48,349 nt of DNA. Origin: a virus. Position 1 is the first letter of the stretch; each line of letters opens with the position of its first letter. The DNA is taken from the IMG/VR virus record IMGVR_UViG_3300037110_000132. The stretch is one strand, 5' to 3'. The position numbers and the translations under genes are program-made. Below, one piece after another: positions 22,547-40,866 of the stretch. The notes under the pieces are model-generated. The model saw only the letters and a list, made by a program, of their open reading frames with translations. It had not been told where the DNA came from and searched no databases.

Positions 22547-24469
22547 ATGGCATTAATGGATCGTTATCAGAATCGCCAGATCAGTTCCAAGAAAGAAGAA
22601 TTAACTCTACAGGAATACCTGGATCTCTGCAAAGCCGACCCAACCACCTACGCCAATGTAGCAGAGCGGATGCTAATGGCCATTGGTGAACCCGAAGTAA
22701 TCGATACTCACCTGACTGACAGGAATTCCAGGATCTTCGCTAACAAGATGATCAGGGTCTATCCCGCTTTCAAGGACTTTTATGGCATGGAAGAAGTGAT
22801 TGAGTCTATCGTCGCATATTTCCGACATGCTGCTCAGGGGTTGGAAGAGAAGAAACAGATCCTTTATCTTCTCGGTCCTGTCGGTGGTGGTAAGTCCTCC
22901 CTGGCCGAGGGCCTTAAGTATCTGCTCCAAAAGGTCCCGTTCTTTGCCATTAAGGGTTCTCCCGTCAATGAGTCACCCCTTGGGCTATTTGATGTGGTGA
23001 ACGATGCCAAGGCGTTAGAAGAGGAATATGGCATTCCCAGTCGGTATCTTGGTAGTATTTTGAGTCCTTGGGCGGTCAAGCGTCTGGAAGAGTTTGATGG
23101 TGATATCTCCAAGTTCAAGATCATCAAGCTTTTCCCTTCTACCTTGTCTCAGGTCGCTATCTCCAAGACGGAACCCGGAGATGAAAACAACCAGGATATT
23201 TCTTCACTGGTTGGCAAGGTTGACATCAGGAAGCTGGAAAAGTACAGCCAAAATGATACCGATGCTTATTCTTACTCCGGTGGTCTGTGCCTATCTAATC
23301 AGGGCATCTTGGAATTCGTTGAGATGTTCAAGGCTCCGATTAAAGTACTGCACCCTCTGCTGACTGCTACCCAAGAAGGAAACTACAAGGGAACTGAGGG
23401 CTTTGGTGCTATTCCGTTCAACGGTTTAGTCCTGGCTCACTCAAATGAAGCTGAGTGGCAGACGTTCAGAAATAACAAAAACAACGAAGCCTTCCTGGAC
23501 CGCATCTACATTGTCAAGGTTCCTTATAGCCTTCGTTTCACTGATGAAACTAGAATCTATCAGAAGCTGCTGGATAACTCTAGCTTGAGCGCAGCACCCT
23601 GCGCTCCTGATACCCTCAAGATGCTGGCCCAGTTCTCTGTCCTCTCTAGACTAAAGGTTCCAGAAAATTCCAGCGTCTTCAGTAAGATGAGGATCTATGA
23701 TGGTGAGAACCTCAAGGATATCGATCCCAAGGCAAAGAGCTATCAGGAATACAAGGACTTTGCTGGTGTGGATGAGGGAATGATCGGTCTGTCCACCCGG
23801 TTCGCCTTCAAGATTCTGTCCAAGGTGTTCAACTATGACCACAATGAGATCGCTGCCAATCCAGTCCATCTCATGTACATCCTGGAGACTCAGATCGGAC
23901 AGATGCAATTCCCGACTGCCACTGAGGACATGTATCGCAAGTACATCAAGGAGTACCTCTCACCCAAATACGCGGAATTCATTGGCAAAGAGATCCAGAC
24001 TGCATACCTCGAAAGCTATGGTGAGTATGGACAGAATATCTTCGATCGCTATGTGGTCTATGCTGACTTCTGGATCCAGGATCAGGAATTCAGAGATCCC
24101 AACACTGGCGAGATGCTGGACCGGGCTGCGCTCAACGAGGAACTGGAAAAGATCGAGAAACCAGCTGGTATCTCTAATCCGAAGGACTTCCGTAATGAGG
24201 TAGTCACATTCGCACTCAGAGCGAAAGCCAAGCACGAGGGCAAGAACCCTTTGTGGACCTCTTATGAGAAACTCCGTGCAGTAATCGAGAAGAAGATGTT
24301 CTCTAATACTGAGGAATTGCTCCCTGTCATTTCCTTCAACACCAAGGCAAGCGCGGACGATCAGAAGAAACACAAAGACTTCTTGGACCGGATGATCGCT
24401 AGGGGTTACACTGAGAAGCAAGTCCGTCTGCTGTGTGACTGGTACCTGCGCGTAAGGAAATCTTCATGA
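22547..24469 (+). CDS. prkA: PrkA/YeaG family serine protein kinase (AAA+ N-domain)
   Basis: 640 aa. The N-terminus aligns with E. coli YeaG (TLQEYL...YANAAERLLMAIGEP...YPAFEEFYGMEDAIEQIV...AAQGLEEKKQILYLLGPVGGGKSSLAE). Walker A motif GPVGGGKS. Confidence 0.85.
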   Translation: MALMDRYQNRQISSKKEELTLQEYLDLCKADPTTYANVAERMLMAIGEPEVIDTHLTDRNSRIFANKMIRVYPAFKDFYGMEEVIESIVAYFRHAAQGLEEKKQILYLLGPVGGGKSSLAEGLKYLLQKVPFFAIKGSPVNESPLGLFDVVNDAKALEEEYGIPSRYLGSILSPWAVKRLEEFDGDISKFKIIKLFPSTLSQVAISKTEPGDENNQDISSLVGKVDIRKLEKYSQNDTDAYSYSGGLCLSNQGILEFVEMFKAPIKVLHPLLTATQEGNYKGTEGFGAIPFNGLVLAHSNEAEWQTFRNNKNNEAFLDRIYIVKVPYSLRFTDETRIYQKLLDNSSLSAAPCAPDTLKMLAQFSVLSRLKVPENSSVFSKMRIYDGENLKDIDPKAKSYQEYKDFAGVDEGMIGLSTRFAFKILSKVFNYDHNEIAANPVHLMYILETQIGQMQFPTATEDMYRKYIKEYLSPKYAEFIGKEIQTAYLESYGEYGQNIFDRYVVYADFWIQDQEFRDPNTGEMLDRAALNEELEKIEKPAGISNPKDFRNEVVTFALRAKAKHEGKNPLWTSYEKLRAVIEKKMFSNTEELLPVISFNTKASADDQKKHKDFLDRMIARGYTEKQVRLLCDWYLRVRKSS

Positions 24470-25698
24470 TCATTGATCGAAGATCGGATAGCAAGCATAA
24501 AAGCTCCGTTAACCGAAGTAGATTCATCCAACGCTTTAAAGGCCAGATCAAGAAAGCTGTCTCTGATACAATCAACAAGGACAGCATCAAAGATCTGGCT
24601 GGCAAGAAGATTGGGATTTCCAATAGAAGCATCAAGGAACCACGATTCAGGACTGGGCCTGGAGGGATATCAGAGGATGTCCATCCAGGTAATGATAAAT
24701 ATCATTCAGGTGAAGAAGTAGAAAGGCCCTATGGCGATGATGGCATGGGATCTAGCGCCAGTCCTGATGGAGAGGGTATGGACGAATTCGTCTTCACCCT
24801 TTCTAGAGAAGAATTCCTGGATATCTTCTTTGAGGAACTGGCACTTCCTAATCTGACTAAGAAGTATTTGGCCAGTTTAAAGGAATTCAAGCGGGTAAGG
24901 GCTGGGATTAGTAATGCCGGAACTCCTAATAATATCAATCTCGTCCGGACTTTCAGGAGCGCCACAGGCCGAAGGGTAGCCATCGGTGGTCCTTATGCCA
25001 CTGAATTAGCAGAATTAGAGGAGAAACTAGCTGAAGTCACAGATGAAGAAGAATTCACATTCCTAACAGAAGAAATAGAGAGGGTCAGGACTCGGATTAG
25101 TCACATTCCCTGGATTGATACCTTCGACCTCCGGTATAATTATCATGATAAGGTTCCTCAGCCTTCGGCTCAGGCTGTTATGTTCTGCTTGATGGATGTA
25201 TCTGGATCAATGGACGAGGAGAAGAAGAACATCGCTAAGCGATTCTTCACCCTCTTATATCTGTTTTTGACTCGTACCTACGAGAAAACTGATATCGTCT
25301 TCATTCGCCATCATGTTCATGCCGAAGAAGTGGATGAGGATACTTTCTTCCATTCTCAGGAAACAGGTGGAACTATTGTTTCCTCAGCATTGAAGCTGAT
25401 GCTCCAAATCATCGAAGAGCGTTACAACAACGGTCAATGGAACATCTATGGTGCACAGGCTTCAGATGGTGACAATTGGTTCGAAGATTCCAATGGGTGT
25501 ATTCAGCTATTGGAAGATCAAATTCTTAAGTTGGTCCAGTATTTCGCGTATGTAGAGATTGCTGAGCGCCCACAAAGCTTGTGGGTTGAATATGAATCAA
25601 TCACGCCGAAATATGAAGGGCTGTTTGCGATCAGACGGATTAATAGCGCGGCTGATATCTATCCAGTGTTCTGTGATCTCTTTAAGAAGCACGAGTAA
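24466..25698 (+). CDS. yeaH: YeaH/YhbH (DUF444) vWA-like protein
   Basis: 410 aa. Stop/start overlap with prkA. MIDAS-type DVSGSMDE motif. Canonical partner of PrkA. Confidence 0.75.
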   Translation: MIIDRRSDSKHKSSVNRSRFIQRFKGQIKKAVSDTINKDSIKDLAGKKIGISNRSIKEPRFRTGPGGISEDVHPGNDKYHSGEEVERPYGDDGMGSSASPDGEGMDEFVFTLSREEFLDIFFEELALPNLTKKYLASLKEFKRVRAGISNAGTPNNINLVRTFRSATGRRVAIGGPYATELAELEEKLAEVTDEEEFTFLTEEIERVRTRISHIPWIDTFDLRYNYHDKVPQPSAQAVMFCLMDVSGSMDEEKKNIAKRFFTLLYLFLTRTYEKTDIVFIRHHVHAEEVDEDTFFHSQETGGTIVSSALKLMLQIIEERYNNGQWNIYGAQASDGDNWFEDSNGCIQLLEDQILKLVQYFAYVEIAERPQSLWVEYESITPKYEGLFAIRRINSAADIYPVFCDLFKKHE

Positions 25699-25700
25699 CT

Positions 25701-27224
25701 ATGCGACAGAAAAAGCCCAAGCTCCCAAAGCTCCCCACCCCTCTCCCCACCGGCTCTGAATGGAGCTTTGATTCCATTCAGGCTTTTGATGATGCATGCA
25801 AGAAGGTAGCGGATAGATTCTCATTGGATTCCTATCCTCACCAGCTTGAAATCATCAGTGCTGAGCAGATGATGGATGCCTATGCGAGCATTGGTATGCC
25901 AGTGTTCTATCATCACTGGTCTTTTGGTAAATCCTTCCTAGCCACGGAGAATAAATATAAACGTGGCTACATGGGCTTGGCATACGAGATCGTGATCAAC
26001 TCAGATCCCTGCATTGCCTACCTAATGGAAGAGAACACCCTGACAATGCAAGCACTCGTCATTGCCCATGCCGCATATGGTCATAATAGCTTTTTCAAGG
26101 GCAACCACTTGTTCAAGCAGTGGACCAGTCCAGATTCTATCATCGACTATCTGGTCTTCGCTAAGAATTTCATCACGGAATGTGAAGAAAAATATGGTCA
26201 AGAGACAGTAGAGAAGATGTTAGATGCTTGCCATGCCCTGATGAATCTTGGTGTGGATAGACACAGACGCGCTCCTAAGCTCTCAATGGTGAAAGAGAAG
26301 CTTCGTCAGAAGGAACGTGAGGAATATCTACAGTCACAGGTCAATGAGCTTTGGAAGACTTTACCTTTCCAGTCCAAGAAGGAAGAAGGAAATACAGAGA
26401 AGTTTCCTAAGGAACCAGAGGAGAACGTCCTCTATTTCATCGAGAAGAATGCTCCCCTCCTGGAACCCTGGCAACGAGAAATTATCAGGATTGTCCGTAA
26501 GATCGCACAATACTTCCACCCTCAGAAGCAAACTCAGCTAATGAACGAAGGGTGGGCATGTTTCTGGCACTATAAGATTCTGAACACATTATATGACGAT
26601 AATTTGGTCGGTGATGGGTTCATGCTTGAGTTCCTACAGTCCCATACAAATGTCTGTTATCAACCAGCCTATAGTAGCAAATGGTATTCGGGAATTAGTC
26701 CCTATGCCTTTGGTTTTGCAATGTGGCAAGATATTAAGCGGATTTGCGAGAAGCCAACAAAAGAGGATTCTGAATGGTTCCCTAGCATCGCAGGATCAGA
26801 CTGGCGTGAGACACTTGAGTTCGCTATGAACAATTTCAAGGATGAGAGTTTTGTCTCCCAGTATCTCTCTCCAAAGATGATGAGAGATTTCCATTTATTC
26901 TCTGTGCTAGACGATGATGAGGAAGAAGATCTCATTATCGGCCCAATCCATGATGAGGTTGGTTACTATGGATTGCGTCAGAGATTGTCGGATCAATACA
27001 ACCTGGGCAGTCGTGAACCAAATATTCAGGTTTGGAATCTGGATAAGCGTGGAGATCGGACTCTGACCCTGAGATATTTCAGCTACCATCGGAAACCCCT
27101 TTACAAAGATTTCATTGATGTTGTGAAATACACCGCTTATCTCTGGGGCTTCCCAGTTGCCCTGGAAGAGCAAGATGAAACGGGCTTCGTGGACTTCTTG
27201 GGGATGGAAACTCCTGAAATTTGA
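25701..27224 (+). CDS. spoVR: SpoVR/YcgB family protein
   Basis: 507 aa. Third member of the conserved prkA-yeaH-spoVR triad. Assignment rests on size, operon context and conserved blocks such as YHHWSFGKSF and EGWACFWHYKIL. Confidence 0.7.
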   Translation: MRQKKPKLPKLPTPLPTGSEWSFDSIQAFDDACKKVADRFSLDSYPHQLEIISAEQMMDAYASIGMPVFYHHWSFGKSFLATENKYKRGYMGLAYEIVINSDPCIAYLMEENTLTMQALVIAHAAYGHNSFFKGNHLFKQWTSPDSIIDYLVFAKNFITECEEKYGQETVEKMLDACHALMNLGVDRHRRAPKLSMVKEKLRQKEREEYLQSQVNELWKTLPFQSKKEEGNTEKFPKEPEENVLYFIEKNAPLLEPWQREIIRIVRKIAQYFHPQKQTQLMNEGWACFWHYKILNTLYDDNLVGDGFMLEFLQSHTNVCYQPAYSSKWYSGISPYAFGFAMWQDIKRICEKPTKEDSEWFPSIAGSDWRETLEFAMNNFKDESFVSQYLSPKMMRDFHLFSVLDDDEEEDLIIGPIHDEVGYYGLRQRLSDQYNLGSREPNIQVWNLDKRGDRTLTLRYFSYHRKPLYKDFIDVVKYTAYLWGFPVALEEQDETGFVDFLGMETPEI

Positions 27225-33276: not shown

Positions 33277-33313
33277 AAAAATTTCGCATAGAATTGACTT
33301 CTAGATTTCCTTC

Positions 33314-33322
33314 TGTTATAAT
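33314..33322 (+). promoter_or_regulatory. Extended -10 element cTGtTATAATtgg
   Basis: Follows the tRNA 3' end. A gaggt Shine-Dalgarno and the ATG at 33340 follow. Confidence 0.4.
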
Positions 33323-34178: not shown

Positions 34179-34371
34179 TTACCAGAGAAAATCCAGCTAT
34201 CTACTGCGCTGGCTCATGGGTCCTGCCTCAATTGTGGACGGTGTTATACGAACCGTGACCCTGGGATTTGTTTCTTCCGGATTGGAGTATCAGTGCGCTA
34301 TGTGCATCTTGAAAAACGAGTCGGTGAATGGTCAAATCATCGATGTTGAGGAGGCCGAGCATGAAAAATGA
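34159..34371 (+). CDS. Hypothetical small protein
   Basis: 70-aa ORF. Confidence 0.4.
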   Translation: MILCRNDYQRKSSYLLRWLMGPASIVDGVIRTVTLGFVSSGLEYQCAMCILKNESVNGQIIDVEEAEHEK

Positions 34372-34564
34372 GGAACTGATTGGCAAACGGGTTCAGTGGC
34401 AAGAAGTGATCAGCCGGGTCAAGGGAACTTTCAAGACCTGCAGGGGAAAGGTCGCTGAGGTTCGGGGTCAGGAAATCAAAATTGACAAAGTGTGGCGTTG
34501 GCTTCCCCGTTTGGAGAATCTCGCAGTGGTCGAAAAGAAGAAAAGGGGTAGACCGTGTTCATAA
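34361..34564 (+). CDS. Hypothetical small protein
   Basis: ATG with Shine-Dalgarno gaggaggccgagc. Confidence 0.4.
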   Translation: MKNEELIGKRVQWQEVISRVKGTFKTCRGKVAEVRGQEIKIDKVWRWLPRLENLAVVEKKKRGRPCS

Positions 34565-34905
34565 CGATGTGCAAATCGAAGATTCATCGTGCGACCGTCA
34601 CTGGAGCGAAGCTGGATTATACCGGAAGCATTACCATCGATACTAATTTGATGGAAGCTGCAGGAATTCTCCCGTTCGAAATGGTACATATCAACAGCAT
34701 GTCGAATGCGGCTCATTGGGAAACCTATGCAATCCCCGGAGGGGATGGGGAGATTACCCTAAATGGCTGTCCCGCCAGACTCTTCATGCCAGGGGATGAA
34801 GTTGTGATCCTTTCGTTGGTACAAGTTACACCCGAAGAAGCCAGAACCTTAGCTGACCGGATGCATAGAACCGTCCAGGTGGACAAACAGAACCATAGGT
34901 GGTGA
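34555..34905 (+). CDS. panD: Aspartate 1-decarboxylase (pyruvoyl-dependent)
   Basis: Aligns with E. coli PanD across its length: KIHRATVT, the Gly-Ser self-cleavage site YTGSITID, AAGILPFE, TYAIPG and NGCPARLFMPGDEVVI. Start is GTG at 34555 or ATG at 34567. Confidence 0.8.
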   Translation: MFITMCKSKIHRATVTGAKLDYTGSITIDTNLMEAAGILPFEMVHINSMSNAAHWETYAIPGGDGEITLNGCPARLFMPGDEVVILSLVQVTPEEARTLADRMHRTVQVDKQNHRW

Positions 34906-35271
34906 ATGAAAGCAAAAGACCTGCTCAACAAAGAGATCTCTTGGACTGAGGAGTTCGATCCTTATCAGGGGATTTATACAACTAAATCGGGCCGAGTGGT
35001 TGCGGCCCAGGGCAGGAACATCATGGTAGATGGCAATTGGTTGTGGCTTCCGAGTCTTCGTAGGATCAAGGCGATAAGTTATACCTTCACCATCGAAGAA
35101 CCAACCATTAAGTATCAGGTCGTTCACAGTCTGAACAAGAACATTGAATCCCTTAATGTGGTTGCTGACGAGAGAATCACCATTCATGAAGAGGAACAGG
35201 ACCATAAGGATCCAAATTGGGTGCAAATTACCACCTATGTGCCCCATACAACGATCAAAATTTTCAGCTGA
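34906..35271 (+). CDS. Hypothetical protein
   Basis: 121-aa ORF starting 1 nt after the panD stop. Confidence 0.5.
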   Translation: MKAKDLLNKEISWTEEFDPYQGIYTTKSGRVVAAQGRNIMVDGNWLWLPSLRRIKAISYTFTIEEPTIKYQVVHSLNKNIESLNVVADERITIHEEEQDHKDPNWVQITTYVPHTTIKIFS

Positions 35272-35279
35272 GGTATACT

Positions 35280-36008
35280 ATGGACAGAGATAAGAAATAC
35301 GAAACCCATCCTTCGTTCGGTATGATCAGCTTCTCTCGCATCCACAGTGGTGGCAAGGGACCCCGGCTGTTCCAGTCTTTCACCGATAATAGCACCTTTA
35401 TTAGTTGCAAAATCAAAGGGGCCGAAGTCGGTCATGATCTTGGCCGTGATTGGGTCCATGGCAATAAGACCATGATCGAGGTTTATATCTCGGCTTCCCA
35501 GTTCGCTGAGCTTCTGACCTCAATGAATATTGGGGATGGGGTTCCCTGTACCATCAAACAGGTCGCTGGCGTGGAAATTCCCAAGGCTCCGCTTTGTGAA
35601 ACAGTGGCGTCTAAGGTCCGCAATACTTTCAAGAACGAAGTGAAAGACAAGATCAACGATCTCCAGAAAGTGGCCAAGGAGATCGAAACAATGCTGGCTG
35701 GTTCCAAGCTGAGCAAGGAGAATCAGAAACAATTGAACTGGAAAATTCAGGAGTTGGCTGGTTTGTTCTCCGATCACGCCCCATTCATGCTTGATTCGTT
35801 CGAAGAGGCAGTCGAGAAGACTGTCGTCGGGGCCAAGGCTGAATGTGACGCATGGCTCACCCATAATATCATGAGAGCGGGACTTGAAAGTTTGCTGAAT
35901 CAAGCACCCTCGCTCAGTAACAATTCGAATCCCGCTCTGGAGTGCAAGGACGATATCGCGCATGGCCTCTCGCAGGACAGCATCGAGAAGATCATGGGGT
36001 GGGAATGA
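35280..36008 (+). CDS. Hypothetical protein
   Basis: ATG at 35280 preceded by gaggtatact. The ORF track starts at 35217. Confidence 0.5.
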   Translation: MDRDKKYETHPSFGMISFSRIHSGGKGPRLFQSFTDNSTFISCKIKGAEVGHDLGRDWVHGNKTMIEVYISASQFAELLTSMNIGDGVPCTIKQVAGVEIPKAPLCETVASKVRNTFKNEVKDKINDLQKVAKEIETMLAGSKLSKENQKQLNWKIQELAGLFSDHAPFMLDSFEEAVEKTVVGAKAECDAWLTHNIMRAGLESLLNQAPSLSNNSNPALECKDDIAHGLSQDSIEKIMGWE

Positions 36009-36532: not shown

Positions 36533-36826
36533 ATGTTCACGCCCTGGGATAATGACAAAGAGATTCCTTCCCCAGTATTCATCAATAAACTTGGTACAAA
36601 ATGGTGGTTGGATCCCAGTAGTACAGACTATCTTCATAACGAGGATGTCCATGGGACTAGGATCTTGGATGCCAATGTATTCTTCACTGAAACCAGGGAT
36701 GCCTCTAGGGCTCGTGTCATTGTCTACAAGGACCAAGTTGTTCATGAGAGTCAATCCCTAGAAGCGACCGGTCGCTTCATTGACATCATGAAGAGGATGA
36801 AGCGTGATGGGACTCTGGATAAATAA
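36533..36826 (+). CDS. Hypothetical protein
   Basis: 97-aa ORF. Confidence 0.5.
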   Translation: MFTPWDNDKEIPSPVFINKLGTKWWLDPSSTDYLHNEDVHGTRILDANVFFTETRDASRARVIVYKDQVVHESQSLEATGRFIDIMKRMKRDGTLDK

Positions 36827-36843: not shown

Positions 36844-39043
36844 ATGATAAGTAAAGCTGATAGGCTAGAATGGGGAATAGACCTTATTCCTGAAACATTC
36901 TATCTAATCAAAATCAAAAATTGGTCGCAGAGTGGTGATCCCTGGCCCTGCTTATTTCCCACTCTGGCCCCGTCAGTCCCATACGGTCATCAGCGGTCAT
37001 CAGCTTCGTTCGAATCAGTACCTTCTGGTGCGGGTCTACAATGATCATGAAGCTGCTGCTAACTGGGACAAGGCAGTCATTAAGAAGGCCAGCCATGATT
37101 CGAAGAGCGAAGTGGCTAAGCCCGAGCAGCTTACCACCGGCCAGCTACTGATCATCAAAGGCACCGAAGTATCCTTCTACATTCCACCGACTGGAATCGA
37201 AGTGGTCGCGGATCGTGTTGGCAACTTCGTCCGTGAAGCGGTCACCTTGGAACGGATGGAATTCTGCATCCTGAAGGAAGAGCGTGGTGAGAAACGCTAC
37301 GTTCAGGGTCCTGATGTTGTATTCCCCTCTCCCACGGAAACCTTCGTGGAAATGAATGGGGAAATGAAGTTCAAGCCCATCGAACTCACTCCTATTTCGG
37401 GCCTGTACATCAAGGTTATCGCGGATTACACGGAAGGTGGGACCGAATACAAGAAGGGTGACGAACTCTTCATTACTGGCAACCAGCAAGCCATTTACTA
37501 CCCCCGTCCTGAACACAATATCATCAAATATGGGGATCGGACCGTTCATCATGCGGTTGCGGTCCCCAGGGGTGAGGGCCGGTATGTGCTGAACCGCGAA
37601 ACCGGTGAAGTGGGTCTGATTAAGGGACCCCTGATGCTCCTGCCCGATCCGCGTCGGGAAGTGATCGTGCGTCGGGTGCTGGATGCGAATCAAGTGTCTC
37701 TCATGTATCCGGGGAACCAGCAAGCCCTAGAAGTGAACAAGCTACTCAAGGCTGAACTGGAATCCTCCCCCAAGCAGGAAGCTACCTTCTCTCGTGGACT
37801 GATCGCTTCGGCTGCTTCGGCTATGAACACCTTCGCGGGAGATGCGCTGACTCGTAGCACCAGCTATAATCCTCCTCGCACGATCACCCTGGACACCAAG
37901 TATGACGGAGCCGTGGCGATCAGCCTTTATTCCGGATTCGCTGTGCTGATCGTCAACAAGTCTGGTGACAGAAAGGTCGTCGAAGGTCCCGCCGCGATTC
38001 TGCTGGAATACGACGAGACTCTTATGCCCATGGCTCTGTCCACCGGCAAGCCCAAGACCAACAACACCCTCATTCACACCGTCTACCTACAGGTCAAGAA
38101 CAACCGGATCAGCGACAAGATCATGGGAGTGGAAACCAAGGATCTGGTGCGAGTGGATATCACTCTGGCCTACCGGGTCCATTTCGAAGGCAATGATCCG
38201 CTCAAATGGTTCCAGGTCGACAACTACGTTCACCATCTGGTGGAACATGGCCGGTCCATGCTGCGCAACGCGGTCAAGCAGGTGGGGATCGAGGAATTCT
38301 ACAACAACCCGATCGCCATGGTGCGTGATACCCTGCTGGGTCCCGCCTCTGACAATGAAAGTCGCAGAGGACTCGTGTTCAAGGAAAATGGCATGCGGGT
38401 CTATGATGTCGACGTCCTGATGGTCGAGATCGAAGATTCGAAGATTGCCAGTCTGCTCGAAACCGCCCAGGAGGAGGTCATCGCTACTACCCTGGTGATC
38501 GCTGGCAAGGAACGGGAACTGCAGAAGGTGATGCGGGTTGAGGAAATCAACCGCAACATCGAGAAGGAACAGGCTATCACCGTGGCGACCAGGGTTGACC
38601 TGGAAATCGAGAAGGCCAAGAATCAGCTGAAGAAGAGATTGGAAGAACTCACTGGCAACGCCCTGGTAGAATCCTCCCGCCTCCAAGCTGAAGAAGATCG
38701 ACTGGCTCTGGTGGACAACATTTCCACTGCGGAATTAGCCCGTCGCAAGGCTGAGAAAGATCAGGAGATCGAATTCACTCGTCAGGAGATCGAACAGGAA
38801 CTGAAGCGGCTTCATGGTGAGACTGAGGAAATCGTCCAGCGGTCCACTGCAGTCAGTGAGAAGCTCATTTCCGCGCTCCAGGCTTTCGGGGACAAGGCTC
38901 TGCTGGAGAAGGTGGCTGAAGCGATGGCCCCGCTGGCTATCCTGCGTAATAGTGGAGTGGTGGAAGCTTTCACCGGTCTGCTGAAGGGAACCCCCTACGC
39001 GGATATCCTCCTCAAGAGCACTGTGGCCAAAGTCATCAAATAA
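36844..39043 (+). pseudogene. Major vault protein (MVP)-like gene, split by a frameshift at a 10-bp tandem duplication; the downstream frame 36932-39043 is intact
   Basis: MVP-repeat-like segments (compare RYVLNRETGEVGLIKGPLMLLPD with human [24 protein letters not shown]). Shoulder/SPFH-like block ITLAYRVHFEGNDP (compare LQLAYNWHFEVNDR). Long C-terminal cap-helix-like coiled coil. Deleting one copy of GGTCATCAGC (36985-37004) joins the ATG at 36844 (frame 1) to the 703-aa frame 2. Confidence 0.6.
36985..37004 (+). repeat. 10-bp perfect tandem duplication GGTCATCAGC x2 that causes the frameshift
   Basis: Read directly from the sequence. Confidence 0.95.
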
Positions 39044-40401: not shown

Positions 40402-40866
40402 ATGTCTGATTGGGATCGACGCTTCTTAGATCTTGCGAAGCTGGTTTCCACTTGGAGTAAAGATCCCAGTACGCAAACCGGAGCGGTCATCGTCCGACCG
40501 GATAAGACTGTTGTCTCTATCGGATTCAATGGTTTCCCTCAGAGCATGCAGGATTATCCACATCTTTACGCCGACAGGGAAAAGAAGCTATCTCGGATTG
40601 TACATTGTGAGATCAATGCTCTGATTTTCGCTAACGGACCAATCAGAGGATGCACACTATATACCTATCCCTTCATATCCTGTGATCGTTGTTGTGTCCA
40701 GATGATTCAGGCAGGAATCGTAAGGATAGTGGCCCCAAGAGCCTCTGGTGAACAGCTTGTGCGGTGGGAAGAATCTTTTAATAAGACTAGAAGTTATTGT
40801 AAGGAGGCCGGTATAGAGCTGGTTGAGTTTTCAGAGGATTCATGTGGGAACGACTTAAGGGGTTAA
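40402..40866 (+). CDS. dCMP/cytidine deaminase family zinc enzyme
   Basis: Motifs VHCEINALIFA (H-x-E) and PCxxC-like ISCDRCC. Shine-Dalgarno ggaggtataat. Confidence 0.7.
   Translation: MSDWDRRFLDLAKLVSTWSKDPSTQTGAVIVRPDKTVVSIGFNGFPQSMQDYPHLYADREKKLSRIVHCEINALIFANGPIRGCTLYTYPFISCDRCCVQMIQAGIVRIVAPRASGEQLVRWEESFNKTRSYCKEAGIELVEFSEDSCGNDLRG

Follow-up and report, generated by a model that had tools for sequence, protein, structure and literature searches.

A PanD-family gene with a remodelled side-chain pocket on a probable phage contig

The PanD-family gene and its catalytic residues

The IMG/VR virus record IMGVR_UViG_3300037110_000132 was analysed over its full length of 48,349 nucleotides, referred to here as the window, with a focus on an open reading frame (ORF) at positions 34555-34905 whose predicted product belongs to the aspartate 1-decarboxylase (PanD) family. 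A first-pass annotation of this DNA had interpreted the ORF as an auxiliary metabolic gene (AMG) supplying beta-alanine for pantothenate and coenzyme A (CoA). The analysis presented here retains the family assignment, and suggests that the principal substrate of the encoded enzyme is no longer L-aspartate. The features of this panD-like gene on which the argument turns are the following.

34555..34905, + strand: PanD-family proenzyme ORF of 116 amino acids (12.9 kDa), GTG start and TGA stop (ORF list, PF02261, AlphaFold2 and Foldseek)
34543..34548, + strand: AAGGGG Shine-Dalgarno-like box, 6 nt 5' of the GTG (direct sequence reading)
34624..34629, + strand: Gly24-Ser25 codons, predicted autocatalytic cleavage site (alignment with M. 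tuberculosis, Francisella and E. coli PanD)
34714..34719, + strand: His54-Trp55 codons CAT TGG, replacing Arg54-(Leu/Phe)55 of canonical PanD (sequence, alignments and tree)
34768..34773, + strand: Cys72-Pro73 codons TGT CCC, replacing Ala74-Ala75 in M. tuberculosis/E. coli numbering (alignment of NGCPAR with NGAAAH)

The Joint Genome Institute (JGI) gene call begins at an ATG at 34567 and yields a 112-amino-acid product (P0001) labelled aspartate 1-decarboxylase. The GTG at 34555 appears preferable as the start, since the N-terminal sequence MFITMCKSK aligns from residue 1 with the family N-terminus (M-x-I-T-x-C-x-G-K) and the AAGGGG box is situated 6 nt upstream. The first-pass annotation had described an alignment with bacterial PanD along the whole ORF, and this was borne out, at exact coordinates, by the profile search it had proposed: residues 1-114 matched positions 1-113 of the 115 in PF02261 (Asp_decarbox) with an E-value of 1.9e-36 and a score of 124.9 bits, where the gathering cutoff is 25 bits. 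A phmmer search of the PDB retrieved aspartate decarboxylases only, the best being the M. tuberculosis precursor 2c45 (1.2e-21), whilst no family for the protein was found in PHROGs and no PanD-like match among the BFVD viral structures. The Gly-Ser self-processing site (YTGSITID), the loss of which on alignment had been named as grounds for abandoning the PanD assignment, is intact within the motif DYTGSITID at residues 21-29. By profile, PDB and motif comparison, the ORF is thus confirmed as a real, intact PanD-family gene to which the correct family had been assigned.

The AlphaFold2 model, for which 36 homologues were included in the input, had a mean predicted local distance difference test (pLDDT) score of 93.8 and a predicted template modelling (pTM) score of 0.87, and its fold is the double-psi beta-barrel of PanD. 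The top Foldseek matches were the PanD structures 1pqe, 2c45 and 1ppy, with template modelling (TM) scores of 0.86-0.89 (0.88 to E. coli and M. tuberculosis PanD) and root-mean-square deviations of 1.6-1.9 Å; the first 40 matches were all PanD structures, and the next fold class, that of the Cdc48 N-domains, appeared only at an E-value of ~1e-3.

Thirteen positions are strictly conserved in aspartate decarboxylases: Lys9, His11, Tyr22, Gly24, Ser25 (the pyruvoyl precursor), Arg54, Thr57, Tyr58, Gly73, Ala74, Ala75, Ile86 and Asn112 (PMC3314653). The panD-like protein has kept Lys9, His11, Tyr22, Gly24, Ser25, Thr57 and Tyr58, along with Asn70 (equivalent to Asn72), Gly71 (Gly73) and Asn113 (Asn112), and carries Val84 at the Ile86 position. 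Thr57 is required for activation of PanD (PMC3975893), and Lys9 pairs with the substrate alpha-carboxylate whilst Tyr58 is the proton donor (PMC3314653). In a search of a collection of 5.8 billion proteins, from which the 120 best matches were examined, Gly24, Ser25, Thr57, Asn70, Lys9 and Tyr58 were invariant; across the wider His54-type clade described below, the invariant set comprises Gly24, Ser25, Thr57, Tyr58, Lys9, His11, Tyr22 and Asn70. All residues for self-cleavage and for the chemistry of decarboxylation are therefore predicted to be in place. From the alignments we infer that the chain is cleaved between Gly24 and Ser25, with Ser25 converted to the pyruvoyl group; the expected products, by computed mass, are a beta chain of 2.7 kDa (residues 1-24) and an alpha chain of 10.2 kDa (residues 25-116).

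A homologue of the gene on the phage-like contig L001 differed by a pN of 0.215 (nonsynonymous) against a saturated pS of 0.94 (synonymous), and the gene is for this reason regarded as being under strong purifying selection. This, together with the confident fold model and the invariance of the eight processing and catalytic residues across the clade, makes it very improbable that the protein is a dead or non-processing relic of PanD, or a binding or decoy protein. PanDs of the E. coli type need the helper PanZ/PanM, and no such helper was identified in the window; this was the sole observation in favour of a relic.

The side-chain pocket and the His54-Trp55 clade

Canonical PanD (EC 4.1.1.11), as represented by the enzymes of E. 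coli, M. tuberculosis, H. pylori and T. thermophilus, resembles the window protein in length, fold, Gly24-Ser25 site and catalytic residues, the solved structures being 35-47% identical to it. The two differ in the region that receives the substrate side chain. Three of the 13 strictly conserved positions have changed, namely Arg54 to His, Ala74 to Cys and Ala75 to Pro; Gly52 is replaced by Ala, position 55 is always Trp, and the clade of the window protein has invariant His45 and Asn47 where E. coli PanD has Asp45 and Trp47.

In canonical PanD, the guanidinium group of Arg54 from the adjoining subunit and the main-chain NH groups of Ala74 and Ala75 hold the side-chain carboxylate of the ligand, as established from structures of M. 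tuberculosis PanD with pyrazinoate and of the H. pylori enzyme with isoasparagine (PMC6969166, PMC3975893). The R54A variant of M. tuberculosis PanD is inactive (PMC6969166, PMC3975893), and Arg54 has been described as the specificity determinant of PanD (PMC3314653). The corresponding region of the panD-like protein is occupied by His, Trp, Asn47 and Pro. Because proline has no backbone NH, the donor supplied by Ala75 would be lost at Pro73, and with the Arg54 guanidinium also replaced, only one of the three groups that would hold the beta-carboxylate of aspartate is predicted to remain; the substrate is therefore most likely not L-aspartate in its canonical pose.

On the NCBI panD equivalog model TIGR00223 the protein scored 99.5 bits, below the trusted cutoff of 106. 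Judged on Arg54, on the Ala74-Ala75 loop and on this equivalog cutoff, the predicted protein fails strict membership of the isofunctional aspartate 1-decarboxylases. The first-pass reading consequently divides into two: the family, the full-length match and the Gly-Ser site stand, but that aspartate is converted into beta-alanine for CoA does not follow from a protein with these replacements and this score.

The main alternative is that the protein is nonetheless a true aspartate 1-decarboxylase, with His54, Trp55 and Asn47 binding the beta-carboxylate, by which the phage raises beta-alanine for pantothenate and CoA free of the control exerted on host PanD. The full-length PF02261 match, the PanD fold, the retention of all processing and catalytic residues and an identity of 43-52% to canonical Arg54 PanDs are all in keeping with this, and both the JGI and NCBI label the window protein and its relatives accordingly. 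Set against it are the replacement of the very arginine whose mutation to alanine inactivates PanD (PMC6969166), the loss of the Ala75 NH at Pro73 and the score beneath the TIGR00223 cutoff. A beta-alanine/CoA AMG is accordingly considered plausible, although less likely than a changed specificity.

The replacements are shared by a large group of related proteins. The 120 best matches, excepting the shorter JGI call of the window gene itself, were 59-75% identical to the window protein, and all have in common Lys9, His11, Tyr22, Gly24-Ser25, His45, Asn47, Ala52 and the run His54-Trp55-Glu56-Thr57-Tyr58, with a loop reading Asn-Gly-(Cys)-Pro-Ala-Arg. Among the 150 top-ranking cluster representatives (50% identity) from an exhaustive HMMER search, 109 were canonical (Arg54 with Ala-Ala) and approximately 24 lacked Arg54, having instead His, Leu, Phe, Ser, Thr or Pro, nearly all of them in combination with Trp55 and a loop proline. 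Canonical Arg54 PanDs from metagenome-assembled genomes (MAGs) were 43-52% identical to the window protein.

A neighbour-joining tree placed all 44 non-Arg54 sequences in a single clade of 45 leaves, within which all His54 sequences formed a pure subclade of 33 leaves that included MAG, metagenome and phage members as well as the window gene. At position 54 its sister branches have Leu, Phe, Ser, Thr or Pro, in every case together with Trp55, and the occurrence of such hydrophobic or small residues there also speaks against decarboxylation of aspartate. The clade, for which the signature is H54-W55 with NG[C/P]PA, comprises at least 1,685 sequence clusters as retrieved in one search. No solved structure of any member was found in a PDB sequence search and no paper describing the clade in the literature searched; searches on phage panD as an AMG, on PanD-like paralogues and on R54 variants turned up no relevant work other than the structural papers. 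The His54-type changes, as they appear in these alignments and this tree, mark a monophyletic and uncharacterised branch of the PanD family.

Gene neighbourhoods in cells, in phages and in the window

Neighbouring genes were clustered from 80 metagenome loci and from the loci of Pirellulales, Saccharimonadia, bacterium BFN5 and others. Two neighbour families stood out, each present in 27 loci, with several relative orientations observed. One, of ~470-630 amino acids, had no Pfam, NCBIfam or PDB sequence match; its model (pLDDT 89.8) is that of a pyridoxal phosphate (PLP)-dependent enzyme of fold type I, similar to group II decarboxylases and SufS, and the family runs to more than 1,700 clusters, lacks a Pfam model and has D-A-C-Q...G-S-K-F as an invariant motif. 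The other is a TPR protein in which the conserved C-terminal half bears ATP-grasp-like motifs. A PF14397 'sugar-transfer associated ATP-grasp' (ATPgrasp_ST) gene was present in nine loci, neighbours resembling GATase1/gamma-glutamyl-peptidases and cysteine synthases were found in two loci each, and a PapB-like radical S-adenosylmethionine (rSAM)/SPASM enzyme was located near the gene in three. In 19 of the 22 loci where the sequence extended 3 kb or more to either side of the gene, the PLP enzyme, the TPR/ATP-grasp-like protein or an ATPgrasp_ST ligase was encoded within 5 kb. Loci with this conserved PLP/TPR/ATP-grasp neighbourhood include L008, L037, L044, L050, L068, L075, L088, L093 and L101.

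None of panB, panC or coaX was seen among the recurrent or inspected neighbours at ~65 metagenome and five MAG or genome loci of the clade, where not every neighbouring ORF was profiled. At one of five canonical MAG panD loci, that of an Acidobacteriota, panD directly follows a type III pantothenate kinase gene; in the loci inspected, no linkage of relatives of the window protein with pan or coa genes was by contrast seen, which is a further point against a role in beta-alanine supply. The PLP and ATP-grasp partners, and the lack of panB, panC and coaX among the genes seen, argue that in cells the clade serves an amine- or amide-forming pathway other than pantothenate synthesis.

Two more specific functions suggested by neighbouring genes were considered and set aside. 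A diaminobutyrate decarboxylase had been proposed from an Aminotran_3 gene beside the Pirellulales homologue, but this neighbour proved to be HemL, glutamate-1-semialdehyde aminomutase (642 bits). A link to ribosomally synthesised and post-translationally modified peptides (RiPPs) had been proposed from the PapB-like rSAM/SPASM enzyme and a protein of 257-264 amino acids in BFN5, L034 and L072; the pair was seen in only these three loci and neither gene is present in the window. The BFN5 locus (L003; CP053389.1, 3256625-3272990) is itself duplicated as a perfect mirror image about the panD-like gene, with genes for PHP, Amidase_3, a 264-amino-acid protein and rSAM on both sides in opposite orientation, along with a truncated second panD copy. 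Either this is an artefact of assembly or the locus is a hairpin/inverted-repeat element.

Genes of the His54 type are also carried by phages. An alignment-based scan found them on 15 IMG/VR viral contigs of up to 281 kb; scans with window-specific peptides had given no match in viral contigs and, in genome contigs, only five canonical PanDs. Beyond the window, the carriers comprise at least 16 phage-like contigs (these 15 and L001) and Achromobacter phage 2-1. The closest relative on a long contig, P0003 (74% identical), is encoded on an 88.9-kb MAG contig that also has genes for a T4 gp13-like protein and a GIY-YIG endonuclease. Most other 'phage' matches in the phage collection were unannotated fragments resembling host DNA, and a nucleotide search of this collection with the panD-like region gave no match.

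In the isolated phage, Achromobacter phage 2-1, the 'panD' gene (OQ974181.1, WKV22060.1) is of the His54-Trp55 type (KHWETY ... HGPPAH) and belongs to the clade of the window gene, but is of a Pro-Pro rather than a Cys-Pro subtype, is located in a replication module between RNaseH and DNA polymerase genes rather than among small ORFs, and is annotated as an aspartate 1-decarboxylase by label alone. Gene product 87 of the cultured Rhodococcus (Gordonia) phage Jace (NC_047974.1), an 'aspartate decarboxylase' that is 46% identical to the window protein and likewise encoded by a stand-alone PanD-family gene, differs in that it retains Arg54 (NGERWTTY), with Gly-Gly at positions 72-73; it represents an intermediate type in which pairing with a carboxylate is still possible.

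Canonical Arg54 PanD genes were identified on 41 IMG/VR contigs. Groups of these canonical proteins are seen in loci L131-L153, with ~17 contigs carrying the sequence MEI(K/Q)ILKSKIH and six MLITVLKSKIH. Together with phage Jace, the canonical genes suggest that beta-alanine supply by phages may recur, in support of an aspartate decarboxylase in the window. However, in the one flank of a canonical-panD contig that was inspected, the neighbouring gene was a cellular-looking pyrD-like (dihydroorotate-dehydrogenase-like) gene. Some of these contigs may therefore be cellular DNA, and the 41 canonical PanDs were not relied on as evidence that phages commonly supply beta-alanine.

On the viral contigs, the genes adjacent to the His54-type genes were mixed and mutually unrelated, encoding family A DNA polymerase, tail proteins, ThyX, UvrD-like helicases and homing endonucleases, as well as a few rSAM and PP-loop ATPases. 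Some of these neighbours would accord with an enzyme acting on an amino acid whose side chain is tethered to a macromolecule or nucleotide, such as an amino-acid-nucleobase conjugate in the hypermodification of phage DNA. The gene of Achromobacter phage 2-1 is flanked by RNaseH and DNA polymerase genes, rSAM genes are encoded within 10 kb in L017, L020, L021, L025, L027 and L028, and a PP-loop ATPase (QueC/MnmA-like) gene directly abuts the panD-like gene in L017 and L024. Precedent exists in the decarboxylation of DNA-linked amino acids by PLP-dependent decarboxylases with rSAM partners (PMC8989533). A tethered substrate is nevertheless considered unlikely, given that the window has no rSAM, 5-hydroxymethyldeoxyuridine (5-hmdU) kinase, amino-acid:DNA transferase or DpdA-like gene, that the neighbours in phage loci are heterogeneous, that the active site of PanD is small and buried between subunits (PMC3314653), and that the clade is common in cells, where its ATP-grasp and PLP partners point to small-molecule chemistry. 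For a role in 7-deazaguanine or thymidine hypermodification in particular, the required genes are absent from the window and the phage neighbours are heterogeneous, and it survives only as a part of this low-probability alternative.

The further features of the window are listed below, beginning with those around the panD-like gene.

34361..34564, + strand: small upstream ORF with a likely ATG at 34361 (longest ORF from 34328), overlapping the panD-like GTG by 10 nt
34906..35271, + strand: small downstream ORF of 121 amino acids, its ATG directly after the panD-like TGA
33294..33322, + strand: sigma-70-like promoter TTGACT-17-TATAAT with extended TG, 11 of 12 (consensus scan, pattern match only)
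371, 1384, 2148, 3285, 6095, 41157, 42587 and 44916, + strand: starts of MKL-x-L ORFs (shared N-terminal peptide)
32023 and 30805, - strand: starts of MKL-x-L ORFs (shared N-terminal peptide)

The promoter-like site follows a tRNA-Asp gene at the head of the + strand run of ORFs that includes the panD-like gene, with no terminator-like site on the + strand between it and position 36600. The two ORFs flanking the gene are paralogues with a common motif (G-x-V-x3-G-x2-I-x-(I/V)-D-x2-W-x-W-L-P-x-L) and no significant Pfam match. This motif was not found beside the panD-like genes of other phage loci, and the paralogues were dismissed as functional partners on that account. Across the 48-kb window, no gene was identified for any of the cellular partners, or for an rSAM enzyme, a nucleobase kinase, a transferase or another enzyme of the CoA pathway. 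The absence of a further CoA-pathway gene counts against beta-alanine supply, although a lone phage gene is also what would be expected of a one-step feeder enzyme. The G+C content of the panD-like gene is 0.493, in keeping with the 0.466 ± 0.043 of the ORFs of the window.

No capsid, terminase or tail gene was found in the window. It does contain 17 tRNA genes between positions 149 and 44889, all on the + strand and dispersed among small ORFs, with two each for Gly, Gln and Trp; the large tRNA complement noted in the first-pass annotation was thereby substantiated. Of the two auxiliary enzymes that it had placed nearby, the dCMP deaminase at 40402-40866 was recovered as a PF00383 match (2e-14), but the PTH2-like domain at 45608-46210 was not, with no Pfam match at an E-value below 0.01 and only a weak match to phrog_1866 (6.7e-5), of unknown function. 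HNH endonuclease genes and matches to phrog_200 and phrog_6452 were also present. A phage origin of the window is likely, considering the tRNA genes, the HNH genes, the PHROG matches, the neighbouring gene with homologues in 92 phage records and the huge-phage-like PrkA, the last two of which are described below, as well as the presence of the His54-type clade on contigs with T4 gp13-like, tail and DNA polymerase genes. The missing structural and packaging genes, and the lack of a nucleotide match in the phage collection, keep this origin short of certain.

Several other genes of the window were noted. The 263-amino-acid protein encoded at 35217-36008 matched phrog_6452 (7e-42) and has homologues in 92 phage records, including those of Caulobacter, Microbacterium and jumbo phages (phiR1-37 and BcepSauron); a homologue with 31% identity is encoded 5 kb from the panD-like gene of the IMG/VR locus L025. 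At 22547-27224 is a complete trio of PrkA (AAA_PrkA and PrkA), DUF444 (YeaH-like) and SpoVR (YcgB-like) genes, each with an E-value below 1e-160. Its PrkA is 60-64% identical to those of three uncultured phages of 630-640 kb (LR756502, LR745206 and LR756504), with 56% identity to the Ralstonia phage RsoM2USA protein, and this stress/sporulation-type kinase module appears to be a trait of huge phages. A 703-amino-acid protein encoded at 36932-39043 contains a Major Vault Protein shoulder domain (8.7e-25) and a Vault_3 repeat (6.3e-9), with no PHROG match; a homologue of vault proteins is unusual on a phage-like contig.

At least 9-10 ORFs of 96-477 amino acids, with different bodies (one of them GNAT), share the N-terminal sequence MKL-x-L-(K/T/N)-A-x-(I/V)-K, and several tRNA genes are positioned immediately 5' of ORFs beginning MKL-x-L-K-A. 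The shared part had no Pfam or PHROG match in any of these ORFs, and could be a targeting sequence or propeptide, comparable to the capsid-targeting sequence of T4, or a mobile 5' cassette.

Candidate function and significance

From the remodelled pocket and the gene context, we propose, with a rough probability of 0.55, that the panD-like gene encodes an active pyruvoyl-dependent decarboxylase of the PanD fold in which the side-chain pocket has been rebuilt and the main substrate has changed from L-aspartate, probably to another small amino acid. By homology with canonical PanD, the 116-amino-acid proenzyme would fold as a double-psi beta-barrel and oligomerise, after which Gly24-Ser25 would undergo an N-to-O acyl shift with the aid of Thr57 and Asn70. 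The chain would then split into the beta and alpha chains, with the N-terminal Ser25 of the latter becoming the pyruvoyl group. The alpha-amine of the substrate would form a Schiff base with this group whilst Lys9 of the neighbouring subunit paired with the alpha-carboxylate, and following the loss of CO2, Tyr58 would reprotonate C-alpha and the amine would be freed. In the phage, this lone gene within a run of small ORFs may serve to convert an amino acid of the host pool to an amine during infection.

Several considerations weigh against this proposal. An identity of ~50% to canonical PanDs and the retention of all residues for processing and decarboxylation mean that activity towards aspartate may persist, and a protonated His54, the indole NH of Trp55 and Asn47 could provide an alternative carboxylate site. 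The gene context of the clade varies among bacteria, and an absence of linkage to panBC is also seen for many canonical panD genes. No biochemical data on any clade member were found in the literature searched.

The best analogy for a panD-like gene of changed specificity appears to be provided by the phage homologues of S-adenosylmethionine decarboxylase (AdoMetDC/SpeD), which are pyruvoyl-dependent ornithine or arginine decarboxylases, as their substrates have been determined biochemically (PMC9992855, PMC10407285). These are also small, self-processing, phage-borne pyruvoyl decarboxylases that were labelled as the ancestral enzyme and act on a different amino acid. Their fold and family are unrelated to PanD, however. 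Within the PanD family, the homologue CrpG is the beta-methylaspartate alpha-decarboxylase of cryptophycin biosynthesis, an example of the PanD scaffold serving a substrate other than aspartate. The CrpG substrate still has a beta-carboxylate and the enzyme has no phage context.

For the clade as a whole, we give about even odds to a broader proposal, in which the branch defined by His54-Trp55 and x-Pro73 was neofunctionalised away from L-aspartate, serves a cellular amine or amide pathway with PLP and ATP-grasp partners, and has been captured repeatedly by phages, among them that of the tRNA-rich window and Achromobacter phage 2-1, as a single-gene route to an amine during infection. Were this so, the label 'aspartate 1-decarboxylase' would be wrong for well over a thousand proteins.

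If the window gene is instead a plain panD, it would extend the catalogue of phage AMGs only modestly; the supply of beta-alanine and CoA is seldom discussed for phages, and PanD-labelled genes are already present in a few phage records. Caution is advised in scoring the window gene as 'CoA reprogramming' in AMG surveys. The main value of the gene is that it marks a large, unstudied PanD clade which lacks the residues of aspartate recognition and has a conserved neighbourhood of its own. A new activity, if true, would parallel the finding that phage AdoMetDC homologues are ornithine or arginine decarboxylases. Either outcome would be informative, through a wider sequence space for aspartate decarboxylases or through a new pyruvoyl-dependent decarboxylase activity in bacteria and their phages.

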